In this document: positions 24,443 through 63,676 of the stretch, piece by piece
How positions within the stretch are numbered: the stretch's first letter is position 1
Layout of the letters: the number at the start of each line of letters is the position of its first letter
Origin: Candidatus Omnitrophota bacterium
GTDB lineage: Bacteria; Omnitrophota; Gorgyraeia; Zapsychrales; Zapsychraceae
Length of the DNA: 64,000 bases
NCBI GenBank assembly: GCA_020632515.1
Contig: JACKFK010000008.1
Coordinates: forward strand, 8,171-72,170
Direction of reading: 5' to 3'
The notes under the pieces: model-generated
Seen by the model: the letters and a program-made list of their open reading frames with translations, nothing else
What the model was told of the DNA's origin: nothing
The model's database searches: none
Translations under genes and position numbers: made by a program

Positions 24443-25064
24443 GATCTATCTAATCTTAGATACGCAGGTTAAAAGTTACGATCAGCTTTTTGAAATAGTA
24501 AAGAAAGCTTTTCAATCGGGTATAAGAATCTTTCAGCTGCGAGACAAGTGCGGATCCGCTCGCGATATATTGCGATTTTGTGATAAAATGTGTTCTTTGA
24601 TTAATGACGAAGCGATTTTTATTATCAATGATCGAATTGATTTAGCCTTAATAGGCAGGGCTGATGGTGTTCATTTGGGGCAAGATGATATTCCTCTTTC
24701 TTCAGCGAGGGGAATGGTAGGTTTTGAACCGATTATTGGTGTTTCATGTCAAAATTTAGAACATGCCCGAGAGGCGCAAGCGCAAGGGGCTGATTATATC
24801 GGATTTGGTTCTGTATTTAAGACGCTAACAAAACCTGATCGTTTGCCTATGGATTTAGATTTACTGCAAAAGGTTGCGCGTGAGATTACAATTCCTGTTT
24901 TTGCTATAGGAGGAATTAATAAGCAGAATATAAAAATTGTTTTAGAACAAGGTATTAAGTATGTCGCGGTATGCCGATCATTATTAGACGCGGATAATTT
25001 CGCTAAAGACGCGGCAGAATTACAATATTTAATAAAAGCGAAGGAAGACGGTCTGCGAGAGTAG
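24408..25064 (+). CDS. thiE: thiamine-phosphate synthase
   Basis: RIYLILDT, FQLRDK, INDRIDLAL, ADGVHLGQDD, IGVSC, ADYIGFGSVF, FAIGGI; start ambiguous (ATGs at 24360, 24369, 24408). Confidence 0.88.
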   Translation: MRLKKELLKSSRIYLILDTQVKSYDQLFEIVKKAFQSGIRIFQLRDKCGSARDILRFCDKMCSLINDEAIFIINDRIDLALIGRADGVHLGQDDIPLSSARGMVGFEPIIGVSCQNLEHAREAQAQGADYIGFGSVFKTLTKPDRLPMDLDLLQKVAREITIPVFAIGGINKQNIKIVLEQGIKYVAVCRSLLDADNFAKDAAELQYLIKAKEDGLRE

Positions 25065-25128
25065 TTCAGTGGCAGAACCCCAGCTTCCCAAGCTGGTGAC
25101 GAGGGTTCGATTCCCTTCTCTCGCTCCA
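25055..25128 (+). tRNA. tRNA-Gly (anticodon CCC), CCA encoded
   Basis: Folded by hand: acceptor GCGAGAG/CTCTCGC, D stem GTTC/GAAC, anticodon stem CCAGC/GCTGG with loop TTCCCAA, T arm GAGGG-TTCGATT-CCCTT, discriminator T, CCA. Confidence 0.9.
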
Positions 25129-34405: not shown

Positions 34406-34930
34406 TTAAGGAGCCGCGTACTGACGGACATGTAAGGTAATAATATCATCTTTGTTGAGTAAATCGACCTTCTTTAAGTTTATATTAATAATTTTCATTC
34501 CATTAATATACTCACCTAATTCATAAATCTCATTATTAATGAGAGCTACACGTTTGCTATCCATCATCATAGTTCCACTGAGAATAAGGTTGGTTTCGGT
34601 GGGCTTTTTTATTTCTGGGAGGCTGATTGACTGGAGTATTTTTGTTGGTGAAATATTATCAATTGCTGTGGGAATAGTTTTGGTTGGAAATTTAACTGTT
34701 TTCCACAAAGGTAAAGAAACAACAATTAATAAAAAGAAAATAAGACTTAAAAAGAAATATTTTTTACCTTTTGATTTAGAGGGAAGAGGGGGAGGTTTTT
34801 GTTCTGAAGAGATATCTAATGGTTTTATGATTTTTTTATTCGGATCTTCCTTTTTGGGACTAGGTTGCGGTTGATCTGTTTTTGCAAGGTTTGATTGGGT
34901 TTTTTTTAATGCATCGTGAATAATGCTCAT
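34406..34930 (-). CDS. GspB/ExeB-like membrane protein (partner of ExeA)
   Basis: N-terminal MSIIHDALKK, one TM helix, C-terminal LILSGTMMMDSKRVALINNEIYELGEYINGMKIININ; overlaps the exeA-like stop by 4 nt. Confidence 0.6.
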   Translation of the reverse strand: MSIIHDALKKTQSNLAKTDQPQPSPKKEDPNKKIIKPLDISSEQKPPPLPSKSKGKKYFFLSLIFFLLIVVSLPLWKTVKFPTKTIPTAIDNISPTKILQSISLPEIKKPTETNLILSGTMMMDSKRVALINNEIYELGEYINGMKIININLKKVDLLNKDDIITLHVRQYAAP

Positions 34931-35745
34931 TTGCAGCCCACCTCTTTTACTGATTCATAAACAATGTTTTCATCAATGGTATAAGTTCCTATAGCGAAAC
35001 CAGCAAGCAATGCCCGGTCGCAAATAATATTGATCATGCGCGGAGTTCCTTTTGAAAGTCTGTAAATGGCGTTAATCGCTTCATTAGAAAAGGTTACTTT
35101 GGGTGTTAAGTTTATTGGAGAATTGGCTATATTTAACCGGTGCACAATATACTCATGTAATTCGTCTTTAGATAAGGGAAGGATATGGTAGCGCACGGAA
35201 ACGCGTTGATTAAGTTGACGGAGATTGGGTAGTTTAAGCAGATCGTGTAGTTCTGGTTGTCCGATTAATACAATCTGCAAAAGTTTTTCTTTCTCTGTTT
35301 CTAGATTGGAAAGAAGACGGATTTGTTCAAGCTGTTTTACACCTAAATTTTGCGCTTCATCAACAATGATAACAACATTGTTGCCTAAACTGCTTTCATT
35401 CAGAAGAAATTCATTAAGGGCGTTGACTAAATCAAACTTATTTCGGAGTCGGCCTTGAATGCCTAAATCTTTTACAATCAATTGAAGTAACTGTAACGCT
35501 GAGAAATTTGGATTTAGGATTAAAGCGGTTTTGGTATTATCATCCAAGCGATTTAAGAAGGTCCGGCATAAAGTAGTTTTTCCTGTGCCGATTTCTCCGG
35601 TAATAACAATAATTCCTTTGCGTTGTGATATTCCATATTGAAGGTGTGAATAAGCCTCCCGATGATGAAGACTTGAAAAAAAGAAGTCAGGATCTGAGGT
35701 GATATTAAATGGATTCTCGGTCAACTGATAATATTCTTTATACAT
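34927..35745 (-). CDS. ExeA/GspA/MshM-type AAA ATPase
   Basis: PFNITSDPDFFF, Walker A GEIGTGKTT, Walker B VIIVDEAQNL, LVLIGQPEL. Confidence 0.82.
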   Translation of the reverse strand: MYKEYYQLTENPFNITSDPDFFFSSLHHREAYSHLQYGISQRKGIIVITGEIGTGKTTLCRTFLNRLDDNTKTALILNPNFSALQLLQLIVKDLGIQGRLRNKFDLVNALNEFLLNESSLGNNVVIIVDEAQNLGVKQLEQIRLLSNLETEKEKLLQIVLIGQPELHDLLKLPNLRQLNQRVSVRYHILPLSKDELHEYIVHRLNIANSPINLTPKVTFSNEAINAIYRLSKGTPRMINIICDRALLAGFAIGTYTIDENIVYESVKEVGCK

Positions 35746-57129: not shown

Positions 57130-57891
57130 ATGATCCCTAAAACCGAAGCTATTGTTTTAAAATCGTTTGATTATCGTGAAACCAGCCGGATTGTGACATT
57201 CTTTACCAAAGATTACGGTAAAATTTCCGGAATCTTAAAAGGGATCCGTAAAGATCCGAAGAAATTCGGCAGCAGCGTGGACCGCTTTTCTATTAACGAT
57301 TTAGTTTATTATCATTATCGTAAATCCGATCTGCATTTAGTCAGTCACTGCGATTTAAAGCAGTATTACTTTCCAATCCGTCAGGATTATAAAAAAAATC
57401 TCGCGGCAAATTATGTCTTGGAATTAGTTGATACTATCATGCATCCGGAAGACGTAAACAAAAAAGTGTATCAGCTGATACTGGATTATTTAGATTCTTT
57501 GCAAACCGTGGATGATATTAGCAAACTGGTGCATATGTTTCAGATTAAGATTCTGGTGAATTCCGGATTCCGGCCGCACATTGATACCTGTGTTCTTTGC
57601 CGCAAACGGGTGAAAGGCCGGGTGCGTTTTAGTATGCGTTTAGGTGGGTTGGTGTGTCCGGATTGCCCGACTAGAGAAACGAGTTTTACCGTTATTTCGC
57701 AAGGCACGATTGCTTCCATGATTCATATCGAAGAAAGAGAATGGAATCAGGCGTTGCGTTTGGGTTTAACCACTAATGCGCGCAAGGAACTAAAGTTTAT
57801 CCTCAATAACTTTCTTATTTACCACCTGGAGAAAAAAATTAAAGCCCAACGCTTCATGGATGAATCGGAGATTTATGGGAGTAAGTATTGA
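57130..57891 (+). CDS. recO: DNA repair protein RecO
   Basis: TEAIVLKSFDYRETSRIVTFFTKDYGKI OB-fold N-terminus, zinc motif CVLCRK...CPDC. Confidence 0.92.
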   Translation: MIPKTEAIVLKSFDYRETSRIVTFFTKDYGKISGILKGIRKDPKKFGSSVDRFSINDLVYYHYRKSDLHLVSHCDLKQYYFPIRQDYKKNLAANYVLELVDTIMHPEDVNKKVYQLILDYLDSLQTVDDISKLVHMFQIKILVNSGFRPHIDTCVLCRKRVKGRVRFSMRLGGLVCPDCPTRETSFTVISQGTIASMIHIEEREWNQALRLGLTTNARKELKFILNNFLIYHLEKKIKAQRFMDESEIYGSKY

Positions 57892-57960
57892 GATTTAAGT
57901 TGAGTAAATCTGAGTTTAAGAAGTTAAGGAAAAAATTCTATATTTGTTTTAGAGAAGACA

Positions 57961-58050
57961 GAAGGGGAAAGTCACTATCGGGCGAGGTATTATGATCCTA
58001 TAATTGGCAGATTCCTACAAGAAGATCCTATCCAGTTTTTAGGAGAATGA
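57961..58050 (+). pseudogene. Rhs-family core C-terminal fragment
   Basis: Translates to EGESHYRARYYDPIIGRFLQEDPIQFLGE*, the RYYDPxxGRFxxxDP motif that ends Rhs cores; no start codon, no upstream YD repeats. Confidence 0.75.
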
Positions 58051-58100
58051 ATACAGTTTAGAATGAATAATAACTAGGGACGGACCCTAGTTTCGAATAT

Positions 58101-58129
58101 TTGACAGCAGAAGGCAAGTAATATATATT
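58101..58129 (+). promoter_or_regulatory. sigma70-type promoter inside the element
   Basis: TTGACA-N17-TATATT, 47 nt before the transposase ATG. Confidence 0.5.
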
Positions 58130-58175
58130 ACAAAATATCATCCCCCACAAATTAACAATGGAAGGGGGATTTTTT

Positions 58176-58855
58176 ATGCCTAGAAGAGCGAGGGTCGTAT
58201 TGCCTGGATATTTATATCATGTTACACAACGAGGAAATAATCGACAATATATATTCCAAGATGATAACGATTATATTTTGTATTTGAAAAGGGTCGAAGA
58301 ATATAGGAAAAAATATACAATTGATATTTACGCCTATTGTTTAATGGGAAACCATGTGCATTTTATATTAAAACCTTATACTCAGGATGCAATGGCGAAA
58401 ATGTTTAGAGGTGTTAATATGCGCTATGCGCAGTATTATCAGAAAAAACTTTGGGAAGTGGACATGTATGGCAAGGACGATATTTTTCGTGTTTATTACA
58501 AGGGGAACATATAAAAGAAGCAGTAAAATATGTGGAATTAAATCCTGTTAGGGCCAAAATGGTTAGTAAGGCCTGGCATTACTCATGGTCAAGTGCACGA
58601 GCGCATACTGGAAAGAAATATAACTGGATTACACTGTCCAATATAAATAAAATTTTAACTGTAAGTAATTGGAAACAATTTCTTGAAGAATCTGAAAATA
58701 AAGATTTCTTACAGAAGTTGCGAATGAGAACAAAAAGTAATATGGTTCTAGGGGCAGAGGAGTTTATTTTGAAATTAGAAAGATTGCTAAATCGTAAGAT
58801 TCTACCAAATCCAAATGGAAGGCCTCAAAATAAAAAAAGTAGGGTCCGTCCCTAG
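58176..58855 (+). pseudogene. REP-associated tyrosine transposase (RayT)/IS200-like Y1 transposase, interrupted by a frameshift at an A6 run
   Basis: MPRRARVVLPGYLYHVTQRGNNRQ, HUH motif NHVHFIL in frame 0; GHVWQGRYFS and YVELNPVRA (catalytic Tyr region) in the -1 frame; frames switch at AAAAAA 58443-58448. Confidence 0.8.
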
Positions 58856-58917
58856 TTATTCCTAGTTATTCCTAGTTATTACCTAGTTATTACCTAGTTA
58901 TTACGTCCCTAGTTATT
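58851..58917 (+). repeat. tandem array of the 10/11-nt unit CCTAGTTATT(A)
   Basis: Six copies read directly; the unit is the outer part of the right inverted repeat, and the last copy regains CGTCCCTAGTTATT. Confidence 0.9.
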
Positions 58918-58940
58918 ATATTTAATATTAATATTATTAT

Positions 58941-58978
58941 TAAAAATAAAAAAAATAAAATAAAATAAAATAAAATAA
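58941..58978 (+). repeat. A-rich microsatellite including (TAAAA)4
   Basis: TAAAAATAAAAAAAATAAAATAAAATAAAATAAAATAA read directly. Confidence 0.9.
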
Positions 58979-59009
58979 TCTATAAACATATAAAAGGTAT
59001 AGGTCTCTT

Positions 59010-59390
59010 ATGAAAGATAATACAGCATTCTTAAATATTGATCTTGACTTGGTTTGTTCTGAAAATTTAAATCCATTGCTTTCTGAAATACAAAATAAAA
59101 CTTTTAATCTTTATAATAAAAAACATAATGGAGTATATAAAGTTTCTATAGAGATTAATGAACAACAAAATACTCCTGAAAAAACATTGATAGAATTTTG
59201 TGAAATAATTGAGAAATTAACCCCAAAATCAAAAAAAATATGGAAAAAATGTACAAAAAAATGTTTTAATATTGGATTTGAATCTAAAAATGGTTCTCAT
59301 GAATATTTAACAAAGATTACAACATCAACATTAAAGCGAGTGGTAAGGCTAGAAGCTGATATTGAAATGACAATTTATTCGTTTTCTTAA
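59010..59390 (+). CDS. hypothetical 126-aa protein (orphan; possibly toxin-immunity-type cargo)
   Basis: Open frame in about 22-25% GC DNA, weak RBS, no motif I can name; lies between Rhs fragments. Confidence 0.4.
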   Translation: MKDNTAFLNIDLDLVCSENLNPLLSEIQNKTFNLYNKKHNGVYKVSIEINEQQNTPEKTLIEFCEIIEKLTPKSKKIWKKCTKKCFNIGFESKNGSHEYLTKITTSTLKRVVRLEADIEMTIYSFS

Positions 59391-59396
59391 AAAATT

Positions 59397-59738
59397 GTTG
59401 ATCCAGTCAACCGTACAACACAATTTAGACATGATAGTGCTGGAAATTTAATTGAAATCATCGATCCAGATAATAGTAAACGACAATTTGGTTATGATTC
59501 ACGGCATCGATTAATCAGGCAAACGGATAAAAGAAGTTTTACAACCACGTATGAATATAATTTTGCCGGACGGGTTAAACAATCAAACTTACCTGATGGA
59601 TCTACACGTCAAGTATCTACCATTCAATCGGTTGGTTTATCGGATATAGCCAACGAGAAGGGGACAGGCACCGATAGTGCCTGTCCCCTTATGTTCCCCT
59701 TATGTTCAAATAATTCAAGATTTTATGAAGATCTTTAA
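59397..59738 (+). pseudogene. Rhs/YD-repeat fragment
   Basis: No start codon; VDPVNRTTQFRHDSAGNLIEIIDPDNSKRQFGYDSRHRLIRQTDKRSFTTTYEYNFAGRVKQSNLPDGS shows three YD repeats, then degenerates. Confidence 0.75.
59660..59688. terminator. strong hairpin between the convergent island and the helicase
   Basis: GGGGACAGGCAC-CGATA-GTGCCTGTCCCC, 12-bp perfect stem; followed by the tandem duplication CCCTTATGTT x2; no clean T-run on either strand. Confidence 0.4.
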
Positions 59739-59804
59739 ACTTAATATAAAGTTCTATAGCAAGTCAATAACTGCTTTTTATATAGACTCAAAGGATTCTT
59801 TAAT

Positions 59805-62045
59805 CTAATCCTCCCATCCATCAGGTTCGGAGGATTTTTTGCTGGTTTGAAACTGCGGTTCAGGTTTGGTCAGGGTTTGCTGAATAATGCTTTTGGCCAG
59901 GGTTTTTCCAACGCCTTTGATGTTGCCCAACTCATCCGCGGAAACATAATGAAAGTCGCTCATCTTTTTATAACCTTTTCCAAAAAGAATACGCGCGCGA
60001 ACGCGTCCTACGCCTTTGAGCGAAATGATGTCTAACAATTCTTCCTTAATGCCATAACGCACACGGGTGCGCAGATCACCTAAATGAAAGGTGAGTTTGC
60101 GTTTATGCAAAAGTTCAGCCACGCGGCTGGCAGCGTAGAGCAGCCAGTTGGTCGATTCCACATATCGATAGATATCTCCTGGGCCGATGCCGAATTGATC
60201 ACAGATTTTATCTTCCCGTTCTTCATCAATCCACTGACATAACAGCCAGGTGGTTTTGATCGTGGAGAGATACATGTAATAATCATCCAATTGAGCACAG
60301 TTTTCCGGAGCAAGGATAAAGTCATCATGAAAATGGGAAGCAAAGTGTTCAAGATGTTCTAAATCTTTTTTGCCGGTTTTCATCAGCGGACCATCGGGGG
60401 TGCAGGTGATCATATGGAGAAGGCCAACCGAAGAAATCGGTTGGTTTAAATTAATCAGTTTAATGCCGTCACGCAGAATAATTGAGGTGAGCGGGTCGAT
60501 ATAAAGCCGGCTGGTTAAACTGCCCAAAGGAGTAGTGAAGAAACGAAAACCGCTTTTTTCAATAAATTGTTCGCGGTGAAGAAAATCGAAGATTTCGCTG
60601 ATTAACGATAAAAGATCCATATGCTGTTTTTGGTAATGAAGAAACGTGTGGGCAATAAATTCCAGCATGCCTTTGACATCATAAACATATCCGCCAGCGA
60701 TGGATGCCAGGATGTGGATGCGCAGAGCTGCTTCGTCGCTTAATTTCGAAATGACAGGTTCAGGTTCAGCCAAGATATAACGTTCAAAAAGCGTGTCCAT
60801 CTCGGAATGGGTTTTGGCTATAAGCACGGCTTCGCCGTAATCATCGTATTGCGGACGGCCGGCGCGTCCGGCGCATTGCTTGTATTCCGACGTGGGAATA
60901 AAGGCTGCGCCCAAGCCGACTTCAAATCGTTTGCAGTCACGGATAATTGCTCGTCGGGCTGGAAGGTTGACGCCGGCTGCCAGCGTTGGTGTGCAGCCGA
61001 TTACTTTGATTAGGTTTTTTTTAAAGTTTTCTTCAATAAGTTCGCGCTGCTGCGGTTTTAATCCGGCATGATGAAAGGCTGCGCCGTTTCGCACCACATC
61101 AGCTAATTTCCGGCAAACGTTAGTTTGATCTGCAGAGTTACCTGCCATTTTGGCGGCTAAAAGTTTTAATTGTTCTTTTTCGTCAGGAGATAGAATTTTG
61201 CTGACGCTGGCGGAAACTTGACGGCTGACCGCTTGCGCCGAACGGCGTGAATTAACAAAGATTAATACCTGGCCTTGGCCGCGTAATGTATCAAGTGTTA
61301 ATTTGCTGACATCATCAGGTTCTTCTTCTGTAATTATTTTCTCACCGGAGTCTTCAAATGAAATAGTTTCCTGAAAGTAGACGCCTTCTTTAAGCGGGAT
61401 AGGGCGCCAGGTGCTTTTGACAAGATTCGCATTGAGCCAGCCAGCCATTTCATCAGCGTTTTTAATCGTCGCGCTTAAGCCAAGAAATTGGATTTTGGGA
61501 TTCAGTTGTTTAATGCGGGCTGTTAAAATTTCCATGGTGGGTCCGCGGGAACCGTCGTTGATAAAATGAATTTCATCCAAGACAACAACAGAAAGAGAAT
61601 CAATCAACCATTTTGCTTTGGAGCGGATGAGAGAGTCAACTTTTTCCGCTGTCGCCACCAGAATGTTGTATTTGTTAAGCGAACGGCTGGGGGAATCTAA
61701 ATCACCGATTGCCAACCCCACATTAATATTTAAATCTACGTATTTATTTTTAAAATCGTTGTATTTTTCACTGGCCAGGGCTTTGAGCGGGGCAATGTAT
61801 AAACAGCGTCCGCCATTGTGAACAATTGAGCGCAGCATGCATAGTTCCGCCATTAATGTTTTTCCAGCCGCGGTTGGAACGGACATCAGAATACTGTTTC
61901 CTTTAAGTAATCCTTGATTGATCGCTTCTTGTTGAGGTGGATATAAATTTTCAATGCCGGAGGATTTATAAATCTCGATGATTTTGTCGGAAAAATTGTG
62001 GTCTCGTAAGACTTGGAGGAGATTCATGGTGAATTGTTTTAACAT
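59805..62045 (-). CDS. Hel308/Ski2-like superfamily-2 DNA helicase
   Basis: GIENLYPPQQEAI, PTAAGKT, VVLDEIHF, LSAT, QCAGRAGRPQYD, ratchet/Sec63-like middle region, C-terminal helix-hairpin-helix LKGVGRVRARIL...IKGVGKTLAKSI. Confidence 0.88.
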   Translation of the reverse strand: MLKQFTMNLLQVLRDHNFSDKIIEIYKSSGIENLYPPQQEAINQGLLKGNSILMSVPTAAGKTLMAELCMLRSIVHNGGRCLYIAPLKALASEKYNDFKNKYVDLNINVGLAIGDLDSPSRSLNKYNILVATAEKVDSLIRSKAKWLIDSLSVVVLDEIHFINDGSRGPTMEILTARIKQLNPKIQFLGLSATIKNADEMAGWLNANLVKSTWRPIPLKEGVYFQETISFEDSGEKIITEEEPDDVSKLTLDTLRGQGQVLIFVNSRRSAQAVSRQVSASVSKILSPDEKEQLKLLAAKMAGNSADQTNVCRKLADVVRNGAAFHHAGLKPQQRELIEENFKKNLIKVIGCTPTLAAGVNLPARRAIIRDCKRFEVGLGAAFIPTSEYKQCAGRAGRPQYDDYGEAVLIAKTHSEMDTLFERYILAEPEPVISKLSDEAALRIHILASIAGGYVYDVKGMLEFIAHTFLHYQKQHMDLLSLISEIFDFLHREQFIEKSGFRFFTTPLGSLTSRLYIDPLTSIILRDGIKLINLNQPISSVGLLHMITCTPDGPLMKTGKKDLEHLEHFASHFHDDFILAPENCAQLDDYYMYLSTIKTTWLLCQWIDEEREDKICDQFGIGPGDIYRYVESTNWLLYAASRVAELLHKRKLTFHLGDLRTRVRYGIKEELLDIISLKGVGRVRARILFGKGYKKMSDFHYVSADELGNIKGVGKTLAKSIIQQTLTKPEPQFQTSKKSSEPDGWED

Positions 62046-62212
62046 AATCCAAAAAGCTTGTCAATTGCAGAAGGGCGGATAGGAGACAGGTAAATTAATT
62101 TCGGTAAACTTGTTTGCTTGTCCCCTATATTTTTCAGTCTGCTCCTAAGGAGAGCATAATATACGACCATACCCCGATAAATTACTACGTAATTTACGGG
62201 GTTAATTCGCAT
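62039..62212 (-). CDS. candidate 57-codon upstream ORF coupled to the helicase (uncertain)
   Basis: AAAGGAG 12 nt before the ATG; MRINPVNYVVIYRGMVVYYALLRSRLKNIGDKQTSLPKLIYLSPIRPSAIDKLFGLC; its TAA overlaps the helicase ATG (ATGTTAA). The same DNA also folds into hairpins, so it may be RNA rather than coding. Confidence 0.25.
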   Translation of the reverse strand: MRINPVNYVVIYRGMVVYYALLRSRLKNIGDKQTSLPKLIYLSPIRPSAIDKLFGLC

Positions 62213-62377
62213 TTCTAATTTATGCTCCTTTCAGTCGCATAAATTAAATGCTCATTAATAAATATCTTGTAATTATTCTTAATCAAGGTATTATTTACTA
62301 GAAATAAGAATTAAAATCTAAAACAATCCTCGCATAAACTAGCCTTTAGGCCAGAGGTTTGTGTCGCGGTTAAATTT

Positions 62378-62815
62378 ATGAAACTTATTCTCCAGCGAGT
62401 TAAACACGCACAGGTCGAAGTTCAAGCAAAGATTGTTGGTAAGATTGATCAAGGGCTCTTGGTTTTTCTTGGGGTCGCAGAGGATGATTCCAGTGAAGAT
62501 GTTCGCTATTTGGTTGATAAAATCATTCAGTTGCGGATTTTTGATGACGCTCAAGGAAAAATGAACTTGAGTGTTGTTGATTTAGGGGGGAGTGTTTTGG
62601 TGGTTTCGCAATTTACCCTTTATGGCGACTGCCGCAAAGGCCGACGGCCATCTTTTGATCAAGCTGCGGCGCCAGCCAAAGCCGAACAGTTATATAATGA
62701 GTTTGTCGAACTATTGAGACAGAAAAAGATTGATGTGGCAACGGGTCAGTTTAAAGCCATGATGGATGTCTCGCTCATCAATGATGGACCGGTAACTTTT
62801 ATTTTAGAGTCATAA
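62378..62815 (+). CDS. dtd: D-aminoacyl-tRNA deacylase
   Basis: [32 protein letters not shown]. Confidence 0.95.
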
Positions 62816-62893: not shown

Positions 62894-63676
62894 ATGCAAA
62901 CATACGACACACACGCCCATTTAGATCATTTGGAAAATTTTGAACAGGCCTTAAACAACGCGCAACAAGCCGGGGTTAAAGGCATTGTTGCGGTAAGTAT
63001 GGATTTGGCTTCTTGTCGAAAGAATTTAGAGATTAAACAGACGACGCCGAATCCGCGGATTTTTTTAGGGATGGGTATGCATCCCAGTGAAGCAAATTTG
63101 GAAGATTTGCCCGCGTGTTTAGATTTAGCTCGAAAGCATCGGCAAGATTTAACTGCGATTGGTGAAATCGGTTTGGATTTTTGGTATAAATGGGTGCGTA
63201 AAGATCAGGAAAAAAAAGATCAACAGCGTCAGGTTTTTAAGGCTTTTCTGGAATTGGCTAAGGAATTAGATTTGCCGGTTGTAATTCATTCTCGCGGAGC
63301 GTGGCGGGAATGTTTTGAAACCACGAAAACTGTCGGGATTAAAAAAGCAAATTTTCATTGGTACAGCGGACCGATCGATGTGTTAAATGATATTATGGGC
63401 GCGGGGTATTTTGTATCAACAACACCAAATCTTGCGTACAGCGAACCTTCACGCGAAGCCATTGCCCAGGCGCGTAATGAACAAATTTTAATTGAAACAG
63501 ATTGTCCGGTATATTTTCGTAACCCATCGACGGAAGAAGGGTTTAAAGCCGAGCCGAAGGATGTGTTTAAAACCCTGCAGGCTTTTTGTGAATTAAAACA
63601 GATGGAAAAAGAAGAAGCGGTTGCGCGTTTAAATCAGAACGCGGAAGAATTTTTTAATATAAAGGAGCCTTCATGA
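62894..63676 (+). CDS. TatD-family metal-dependent hydrolase
   Basis: YDTHAHLD, IGEIGLDF, VVIHSR, FHWYSG, ETDCP. Confidence 0.9.
   Translation: MQTYDTHAHLDHLENFEQALNNAQQAGVKGIVAVSMDLASCRKNLEIKQTTPNPRIFLGMGMHPSEANLEDLPACLDLARKHRQDLTAIGEIGLDFWYKWVRKDQEKKDQQRQVFKAFLELAKELDLPVVIHSRGAWRECFETTKTVGIKKANFHWYSGPIDVLNDIMGAGYFVSTTPNLAYSEPSREAIAQARNEQILIETDCPVYFRNPSTEEGFKAEPKDVFKTLQAFCELKQMEKEEAVARLNQNAEEFFNIKEPS

Follow-up and report, generated by a model that had tools for sequence, protein, structure and literature searches.

The window analysed here, 64,000 nucleotides of a Candidatus Omnitrophota bacterium (assembly GCA_020632515.1, contig JACKFK010000008.1, positions 8,171 to 72,170), carries on its minus strand a gene, hel308, for a protein of 746 residues. 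On its sequence and predicted structure this protein is a genuine, complete five-domain Hel308/Hjm DNA-repair helicase of superfamily 2 (SF2) and of archaeal type, and not Lhr or HamB. Very probably, hel308 is a chromosomal core gene of the sampled Omnitrophota, inherited vertically at one spot, and the simplest reading of its phylogeny would be one ancient transfer from a Hadarchaeota-related archaeon to the ancestor of the sampled Omnitrophota, with vertical descent since. The initial annotation regarded it as standing alone on the border of an accessory island, a description that does not survive comparison with related genomes.

The hel308 open reading frame (ORF) occupies 59805..62045 (-) and begins with ATG. 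An alternative start, M7 at 62027, may be the true one in place of M1, since most orthologs align from residue 7. The complete Hel308/Ski2 domain order claimed for this ORF by the initial annotation is borne out both by Pfam, where all domains are found in order with the winged helix weak, and by end-to-end matches to Hel308. Each of the motifs it listed is present exactly once in the translation: LYPPQQEAI (34-42), PTAAGKT (57-63), DEIH (157-160), SAT (191-193), the motif VI segment QCAGRAGRPQYD (390-401), GVGRVRARIL (678-687), and GVGKTLAKSI (711-720). The parts of the protein are as follows:

61452..61940, minus strand: RecA1 motor domain, residues 36-198, with Q38, PTAAGKT, DEIH, and SAT (Pfam DEAD, 3.3e-31)
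60852..61085, minus strand: RecA2 core, residues 321-398, with AFHHAGL at 323-329 and QCAGRAGRP at 390-398 (Pfam Helicase_C, 4e-11)
60558..60836, minus strand: winged-helix domain 3, residues 404-496, with a weak HTH_61 match (9e-4, 20 bits, under the 24.3 cutoff), aligning with Hel308 domain 3 in full-length superpositions
60051..60425, minus strand: ratchet domain 4, residues 541-665 (PF21280 Helicase_dom4_arc, 1.4e-33, profile positions 2-125 of 125)
59880..60032, minus strand: helix-hairpin-helix (HhH) domain 5, residues 672-722, with GVGRVRARIL (RxRAR at 681-685) and GVGKTLAKSI (HHH_5, 3.3e-7)
59808..59870, minus strand: disordered C-terminal tail, residues 726-746, ending DGWED, with a predicted local distance difference test (pLDDT) below 50 for residues 729-746

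The closest sequences of known structure are Pyrococcus furiosus Hjm (2zj2, 4.4e-154) and the Hel308 proteins of A. fulgidus (1.7e-143) and S. solfataricus (5.1e-140), and the four Hel308-type equivalog models of NCBIfam all align end to end, the best being PRK02362 with 828.7 bits over residues 18-735. HamB (8vx9, 1.2e-25) and the Lhr chains 5v9x and 7lhl (about 1e-15 to 1e-16) are matched in the PDB over the RecA core alone. The preference of the initial annotation for Hel308 over a bacterial Lhr or HamB is therefore upheld by E-values of 1e-140 to 1e-154 against 1e-25 and 1e-16, respectively. Identity as Lhr was rejected, the scores being far below the cutoffs of the Lhr-type models (PRK09751, 40.5 bits versus 1496; PRK13767, 71.8 versus 849) and the alignment covering just the RecA core. 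The RecQ (2e-7) and RecG (3e-9) families in NCBIfam show weak similarity. Identity as ASH-Ski2 was also considered; in the ASH-Ski2 study the region ahead of the helicase core is reportedly a cysteine-rich zinc finger. The N-terminus of the window protein (MLKQFTMNLLQVLRDHNFSDKIIEIYK...) contains no cysteine cluster, its core begins at about residue 30 with no extra N-terminal region ahead of it, and its best matches are Hel308 and not ASH-Ski2.

The PADLOC HamB models match this protein with E-values up to 1.8e-51, Hel308-like helicases of 25-28% identity lie in plasmid defence contexts (a Dpd cluster in Nostoc, restriction-modification in Manganitrophus), and the flanks of hel308 gather toxin-antitoxin and Rhs cargo in several genomes. 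It might be supposed from this that the gene encodes a Ski2-like anti-phage or defence helicase (Hachiman HamB, Dpd, or restriction-linked) that merely resembles Hel308, but this is very improbable. The best HamB score is 173 bits, confined to the core (profile positions 222-420 of 995), versus 829 for the Hel308 models, there is no adjacent HamA or effector gene in the window or in its relatives, and the N-terminal extension of the approximately 1000-residue plasmid helicases is missing. The conserved housekeeping neighbourhood and vertical inheritance described below also argue against a defence role.

An alignment of 48 bacterial and archaeal sequences was the basis for an AlphaFold2 model and for the assessment of invariant residues. 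The model has a mean pLDDT of 90.7 and a predicted template modelling (TM) score of 0.87, with disorder confined to the last 18 residues and two short loops. Superposition on archaeal Hel308 is over the full length: the top nine Foldseek matches in the PDB are all archaeal Hel308/Hjm (2zj8, 2zj5, 2va8, and 2p6r among them), over 684-729 columns, with TM scores of 0.82-0.86 (query-normalised) and 0.91-0.95 (target-normalised), and the polymerase-theta helicase domain comes next in the list (TM about 0.75). In the model, a three-strand beta element of RecA2 at residues 365-382 (strands 365-368, 372-375, and 379-382) is the putative unwinding hairpin, and a long ratchet helix in domain 4, residues 589-606, holds the invariant W605.

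The SF2 motor motifs (Q motif, Walker A, DExH, SAT, motif IVa, and motif VI) are invariant or at least 90% conserved across the alignment. Invariant residues are Q38, T58, G61, K62, D157, E158, H160, S191, and A192 in RecA1 and H325, Q390, G393, R394, G396, and R397 in RecA2, while in domain 5 G680, R681, and R685 are invariant and R683 and A684 at least 90% conserved. W605 and RxRAR we take to be the counterparts of the published functional residues of A. fulgidus and M. thermautotrophicus Hel308. A role for motif IVa has been described (PMC13623763 and PMC10484726), as has that of domain 5 as a brake and annealing gate (PMC13623763). Given the invariance or near-invariance of the Q motif, Walker A, DExH, SAT, IVa, VI, W605, and the domain 5 G-R-x-R-A-R, the enzyme is intact in each part to which publications assign a role in translocation, unwinding, braking, or annealing (PMC13623763, PMC10484726).

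The region containing hel308 is ordinary bacterial chromosome. The window starts with SecY, Map, and RpoA and continues with, among others, PilT, AccC, PfkA, dGTPase, AroB, UvrB, CoaX, GroEL, GuaB, GuaA, and the polymerase III alpha subunit DnaE. Before hel308 the gene order is hisS, aspS, a LysM protein, phoH, a pgpH-like HD protein, ybeY, and recO; after it come dtd and tatD. The nearest of these are:

57130..57891, plus strand: recO, the convergent (tail-to-tail) neighbour (Pfam RecO_N and RecO_C)
62378..62815, plus strand: dtd (D-aminoacyl-tRNA deacylase), the divergent neighbour (Pfam Tyr_Deacylase, 1.2e-61)
62894-63676, after dtd: tatD (Pfam TatD_DNase, 8.8e-58)

A scan for orthologs in one genome per species returned 21 loci of Omnitrophota type, at 54-69% identity. 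More than 100 further clusters at 61-70% identity are present in the protein database, where all of those named to an organism, about a dozen, are Omnitrophica or Omnitrophota. When the window proteins are mapped onto the loci, a recurrent order emerges: …hisS-aspS-LysM-phoH-pgpH-ybeY-recO→ ←hel308 dtd→tatD→. In the window and in loci L002, L003, L005-L008, L011-L013, L028, and L032, recO is tail-to-tail with hel308 and no more than about 4 kb downstream of it, and dtd-tatD lie head-to-head upstream in the window and in L001-L009, L014, L016, L017, and L021. Even in a deep relative (P0124), in which Hel308 is 47% and RecO 43% identical, phoH-pgpH-ybeY-recO→ ←hel308 is retained.

The divergence of hel308 keeps pace with that of its neighbours. 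Pairwise Hel308 distances correlate with those of AspS, PhoH, PgpH, and RecO at 0.89 over nine loci, and in the seven loci with all four of these neighbours the Mantel r against their mean is 0.97, a value reached in 3 of 5000 permutations. The evolutionary rate of Hel308 is about that of RecO and PgpH (mean distance 0.52 versus 0.57). For the sampled Omnitrophota, examination of synteny from recO to dtd thus finds a conserved locus with a vertical phylogeny, a result that the initial annotation had itself named as one that would refute its view. The arrangement recO→ ←hel308 dtd→ recurs across divergent members of a clade supported at 98-100%, with neighbours of matching divergence, and the gene is not the lone one at an island edge that it had been thought to be.

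Seven of the 21 loci come from metagenome-assembled genomes labelled 'Planctomycetales', with an Omnitrophota-type Hel308 at 61-68% identity (L006, L008, L009, L010, L019, L021, L028), five of them with at least one recO or dtd neighbour (L006, L008, L009, L021, L028). These labels are probably taxonomic misassignments of Omnitrophota bins.

According to the initial annotation the gene abuts Rhs and transposase debris, and so it does, at its 3' end (57.9-59.75 kb). Were hel308 a recent accessory acquisition, brought in with or beside this island, its direct contact with Rhs fragments and a Y1 transposase pseudogene, its position on the minority strand, and its GC content (0.445) and third-codon-position GC (GC3, 0.45), the highest among the window genes measured, would all be accommodated. 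However, hel308 has an equal position and orientation in many divergent Omnitrophota assemblies from which the island is absent, the recO-hel308 spacer being just 10-102 bp in L005-L008, and its orthologs are monophyletic and co-diverge with the housekeeping neighbours. GC3 is equally elevated in recO (0.44), ybeY (0.43), and pgpH. The nearest archaeal protein is about 51% identical, and the known plasmid and phage collections hold no close copy, the best full-length match being 38% identical, on a Methanomethylovorans replicon. A recent, island-borne acquisition is refuted by the synteny, the co-divergence, and the distance of about 50% to any archaeal sequence, and the probability left to it is very slight. 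Instead, the Rhs/transposase material is a small strain-specific insertion into the spacer beside a core gene.

Metagenome bins do contain errors, locus L022 (below) seemingly being one, and an archaeal fragment joined to a bacterial contig in assembly or binning would also place a Hel308 gene in a bacterium. For the locus as a whole this is extremely improbable: the same contig carries bacterial flanking genes (recO, ybeY, phoH, dtd) in more than 15 assemblies obtained independently in different studies, the composition of hel308 matches that of its neighbours, and the orthologs form a clade of their own, distinct from any archaeal sequence. A partial protein of 525 residues, 100% identical, is encoded on a 1.7 kb contig deposited as Candidatus Omnitrophica; a lookup of the exact full-length sequence in the assembly index gave no match.

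The conserved neighbourhood is rich in genes of translation and RNA metabolism (hisS, aspS, phoH, ybeY, dtd), and many RNA helicases belong to the Ski2-like family (PMC10946056), which would be compatible with an enzyme that acts mainly on RNA in this host, for instance in ribosome or tRNA quality control. Such a role is improbable. The protein falls inside the Hel308 clade and not with ASH-Ski2, Brr2, or Mtr4, its best matches are DNA-bound Hel308/Hjm, and the DNA-handling elements (the RxRAR of HhH domain 5 and the ratchet tryptophan) are invariant. Its immediate tail-to-tail neighbour, recO, encodes a DNA recombination mediator, and with the flanking genes on the other strand no operon joins it to the RNA genes.

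For the phylogeny, 1.84 billion cluster representatives were searched and the best 150 taken, together with sequences extracted from the loci, and neighbour-joining trees were built from corrected p-distances over about 700 aligned columns. The protein was placed within the archaeal Hel308 radiation. The Omnitrophota sequences are monophyletic with 100% bootstrap support and are joined with P0124 at 96-100%. Their sister group includes P0122 and P0123, of which P0122 (L031, 10001-13579) lies among archaeal genes (GatD, Elp3, RuBisCO). Searching with P0122 after removal of its intein retrieved relatives at 62-86% identity, nearly all of them named Hadarchaeales, Hadarchaeum, Hadesarchaea, or MSBL1. 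With 32 of these sequences added, the Hadarchaeota are monophyletic (100%) and sister to the Omnitrophota (93%); in trees that also contain distant plasmid helicases of bacteria, computed with Kimura or gamma distances, support for this sisterhood is 95-96%. The two groups together are nested among 149 other archaeal representatives, to which the window protein has a mean identity of 40% and a maximum of 46%, against 46-52% to the Hadarchaeota.

Unrooted, the topology (Omnitrophota, Hadarchaeota, the rest) would on its own fit a root on the Omnitrophota stem, and with it a Hel308 ancestral to both domains, kept by the Omnitrophota from the last universal ancestor and lost by other bacteria. 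It is most unlikely that this is the case, as the outgroup plasmid helicases attached to the Omnitrophota stem or to the stem of Omnitrophota plus Hadarchaeota in 0 of 100 replicates under either distance correction, the Omnitrophota are nearer to the Hadarchaeota than to other archaea, and loss would be needed in essentially every other bacterial phylum. The sole 'bacterial' match outside the Omnitrophota is L022, 1-2800 (DASPRZ010000038.1, labelled Acidiferrales), with a Hel308 of 42% identity. As a second bacterial lineage it was rejected: an archaeal KEOPS gene, cgi121, directly follows and the protein groups with Methanomicrobia, so that it is probably a misbinned archaeal contig.

Some Hadarchaeota proteins (P0122, P0343, and P0373 among them) have a LAGLIDADG intein of about 460 residues in motif VI (…EFHQM/C…HN/CGRAGRP); there are no inteins in any Omnitrophota ortholog. 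Plasmids of Nostoc (L033), Manganitrophus (L034), and Hymenobacter (L035) encode helicases of 799-1017 residues with 25-28% identity over about 90% of the length of Hel308. Their contexts are defence-like: a Dpd 7-deazaguanine cluster, a position beside a restriction-modification system, and a position beside an exonuclease and a PLD-like protein.

Several observations weigh against a vertically inherited Hel308 core gene of archaeal origin. The four NCBIfam Hel308 equivalog models each have their own high cutoff (887-1216 bits), and all four were missed: PRK02362 (828.7 versus 887), PRK00254 (630.5 versus 1216), NF040935 (583.2 versus 1200), and PRK01172 (493.5 versus 891). These sub-cutoff scores are probably why public records say only 'DEAD/DEAH box helicase'. 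There is no dtd within the 4.5-10 kb of upstream flank in L011, L012, L015, L028, and L032, and no recO within the 3.8-10 kb of downstream flank in L001, L009, and L014-L017, L015 being the sole locus with neither gene in its flanks. Deeper archaeal branching is weak, with 13% bootstrap support, and the trees are neighbour-joining and not maximum likelihood. The three outgroups did not cluster, and the rooting therefore rests on where the plasmid helicases do not attach. Finally, recO and hel308 are tail-to-tail and are not co-transcribed, and since the whole block is syntenic their adjacency alone is no proof of a functional link.

Taking the evidence together, the donor would probably have been an archaeon related to the Hadarchaeota, the closest donor lineage. 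The gene would have entered the common ancestor of the sampled Omnitrophota and come to lie between recO and dtd, both of which are on the other strand, to be inherited vertically since then under purifying selection with all of its catalytic and DNA-handling elements intact. From the biochemistry of the family, the enzyme would be expected to load onto 3' single-stranded DNA where forks have stalled or there are gaps and to translocate 3'→5' by means of the ATP-driven RecA1/RecA2 motor, splitting the duplex over the RecA2 hairpin, threading the strand past W605 of the ratchet helix, and unwinding lagging strands at stalled forks. By the same analogy, HhH domain 5 (RxRAR) and motif IVa (AFHHAGL) may throttle the helicase and switch it to strand annealing. 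In the host it would act as a RecQ/RecG-like helicase of fork repair and recombination control alongside SSB and RecFOR-RecA. Indeed, archaeal Hjm/Hel308 has been found to be active in vivo in E. coli dnaE486 recQ mutant cells and has been proposed as a RecQ counterpart (PMC2636818). The fixed adjacency to recO is suggestive of a functional link with hel308, not proof of one.

With a DnaE replisome and RecO, the host would have no PCNA or RPA. In PfuHjm a C-terminal PCNA-interacting protein (PIP) box is required for PCNA binding (PMC2636818); some Hel308 proteins have this box, PfuHjm among them, and it is not a defining trait of the family. A PIP box (Qxx[LIMVF]xx[FYW]) is not found in the last 14 residues of the window protein. 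PIP-like termini are present in 0 of 120 Omnitrophota orthologs (P0002-P0121) and 0 of 116 Hadarchaeota sequences, against 44 of 141 (31%) other archaeal representatives. If the donor-type protein was already without a PCNA-binding tail, the move into a bacterium would have been eased. In place of the PIP box, 25 of the 120 Omnitrophota orthologs end in an acidic-tryptophan motif, W-x(0,1)-[DE](1,2), seen in forms such as …DGWED (the window protein), …EEWED, and …DSWDE; it is found in none of the 116 Hadarchaeota sequences and in 1 of the 141 other archaeal representatives. When the tail columns are left out of the tree, the motif is scattered on it, with about 10 state changes, which would mean that it is either old and often lost or repeatedly gained. 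Speculatively, this tail is a candidate new docking motif for a bacterial partner.

A more far-reaching possibility, put forward tentatively and on balance doubtful, is that the whole phylum adopted Hel308 from a PIP-less Hadarchaeota-like donor as standing fork and recombination machinery, the acidic-tryptophan tail having rewired it to SSB, RecO-RecA, or the clamp. In that case RecQ or RecG functions might have been taken over, and the position beside recO would reflect a partnership.

With archaeal Hel308/Hjm (P. furiosus 2zj2/2zj5/2zj8, A. fulgidus 2p6r, S. solfataricus 2va8) the window protein shares the five domains and their order, all of the SF2 motifs, the F-HHAGL of motif IVa, the ratchet-helix tryptophan, and the domain 5 RxRAR, with 35-38% identity over about 720 positions and TM scores of 0.85 (query) and 0.91-0.95 (target). 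From these shared features the same mechanism would be expected, that of a 3'→5' DNA translocase and helicase with annealing activity. It differs in its bacterial host, which has a DnaE replisome and RecO and would have no PCNA or RPA, in ending DGWED where PfuHjm has its PIP box, and in its sub-cutoff NCBIfam scores. The closest archaeal relatives, the Hel308 proteins of Hadarchaeota (Hadesarchaea/MSBL1; for example P0122 and P0304-P0422), likewise lack a PIP terminus; they differ in their archaeal context (L031), in the motif VI intein carried by some, and in a shorter tail (median of 10 versus 20 residues in Omnitrophota), none with an acidic-tryptophan ending.

Metazoan HELQ and the helicase domain of DNA polymerase theta also have the Hel308 core fold (PolQ chains 5e-55, TM about 0.75) and have a translocase/annealase logic in common with it (PMC13623763), but identity is 24-26%, the window protein has neither the N-terminal extension of HELQ nor a polymerase fusion, and the host has no RPA or RAD51. 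Hachiman HamB and the bacterial Ski2-like defence helicases share the Ski2-like SF2 core; HamB aligns over that core alone, and the window protein has no HamA partner, no N-terminal extension, and a housekeeping context. RecQ and RecG would be functional analogues by expected role (stalled forks, recombination intermediates), with homology limited to the SF2 core and different accessory domains.

According to published papers bacteria lack Hel308, and a review from 2026 on Hel308/HELQ speaks of conservation 'from archaea to humans' with bacterial orthologs unmentioned (PMC13623763). Within the literature library searched, no paper pairs Hel308 with Omnitrophota, and searches on Hel308 in bacteria and on the repair gene content of Omnitrophota returned nothing usable. 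The kind of protein is well known and its sequences are already in the databases under a generic name; what appears to have been unremarked before is that a bona fide Hel308, traceable to an archaeal donor, belongs to the conserved core of a bacterial phylum. It amounts to a natural experiment, in that an enzyme that normally operates with RPA, PCNA, and RadA/RAD51 must here operate with SSB, RecA, RecO, and a DnaE replisome. A dated transfer between domains is also added for a phylum in which life on other microbes, or predation on them, is already suspected, archaea included. Attachment to archaeal cells and their degradation have been put forward speculatively for some Omnitrophota in a preprint (10.1101/2023.11.21.568195), and such behaviour would offer a route for transfers of this kind. 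The practical outcome is modest: annotation as Hel308 instead of as a generic DEAD/DEAH helicase.

The insertion that separates recO from hel308 in the window is composed of Rhs and transposase debris, with these components:

57892..59804: strain-specific insertion in the recO-hel308 spacer, 1.9 kb
57963-58052: tail of an Rhs core, its last 29 codons (YRARYYDPIIGRFLQEDP)
58069-58093 and 58836-58860: 25-nt inverted repeats flanking the transposase, each with the palindrome CTAGGGACGGACCCTAG
58158-58855: frameshifted Y1/IS200-like transposase, in pieces 58158-58514 and 58451-58855 (Y1_Tnp, 3e-10)
58851-58919: six tandem copies of a 10-11-nt repeat, CCTAGTTATT(A/C)C
59010-59390: orf126, 126 codons, AT-rich (GC 0.236, GC3 0.126), between the transposase and the RHS-repeat fragment
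59397-59738: RHS-repeat fragment (Pfam RHS_repeat, 7e-14)
59658-59690: perfect 14-bp hairpin, about 115 nt past the hel308 stop

The transposase and orf126 are bracketed by the two orphan Rhs pieces, and a 14-16-nt sequence, AGAAGGGGA.AG.CAC, is present at both edges (57960 and 59656), the second copy forming the 14-bp hairpin. The hairpin motif GGGGACAGG is not enriched, with 4 matches versus 1.9 expected. The palindrome flanking the transposase is found within the 64-kb window in its two flanking copies alone, and the window therefore offers no evidence for a dispersed repetitive extragenic palindromic family. PADLOC returned nothing for the C-terminal half of the transposase. No Pfam or PADLOC model matches orf126, which could be the orphaned immunity gene of an Rhs system or some other cargo of the island.

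In L002, L003, and L011-L013 the recO-hel308 spacer contains cargo unrelated to that of the window, namely toxin-antitoxin-like pairs, large secreted proteins, and membrane glycosyltransferase-like proteins. As the spacer is short in L005-L008 and carries unrelated cargo in these other loci, this junction is a recurrent landing site for insertions next to a stable core gene. A large secreted protein of 902-1278 residues (conserved N-terminal region '…LRGLK…DPL.FDF…') is encoded beside hel308, on either side, in L009, L011, L012, and L013.

On the other side of the gene is the divergent spacer:

62046..62377: hel308/dtd spacer, 332 bp, AT-rich, with imperfect hairpins at about 62079-62128 and 62172-62201

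The upstream region had been called unusual, and in part it is, being long, AT-rich, and predicted to fold stably (minimum free energy -86.4 kcal/mol, z -4.54, with 0 of 100 shuffles as stable). The description does not extend to any recognisable element: no Rfam family matches the spacer, and promoter and terminator scans over 57.8-62.9 kb gave counts no higher than in shuffled sequences. In relatives this spacer is 32-353 bp long. At gathering thresholds, the Rfam scan of the whole window returned a single tRNA (25055-25125) and nothing near hel308.

The initial annotation was also correct that hel308 has no partner gene, in the sense that no operon partner is co-transcribed with it, and that it is one of three sizeable minus-strand genes in the window. 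The others are at 34406-34930 and 34927-35745, and the remaining minus-strand ORFs overlap plus-strand genes such as groEL and dnaE. This second pair (34406-35745) consists of an AAA_22-type ATPase of 272 residues (Pfam, 6e-29) and a 174-residue ORF without a Pfam or NCBIfam match, which overlap by 4 bp and lie inside an otherwise plus-strand housekeeping region.

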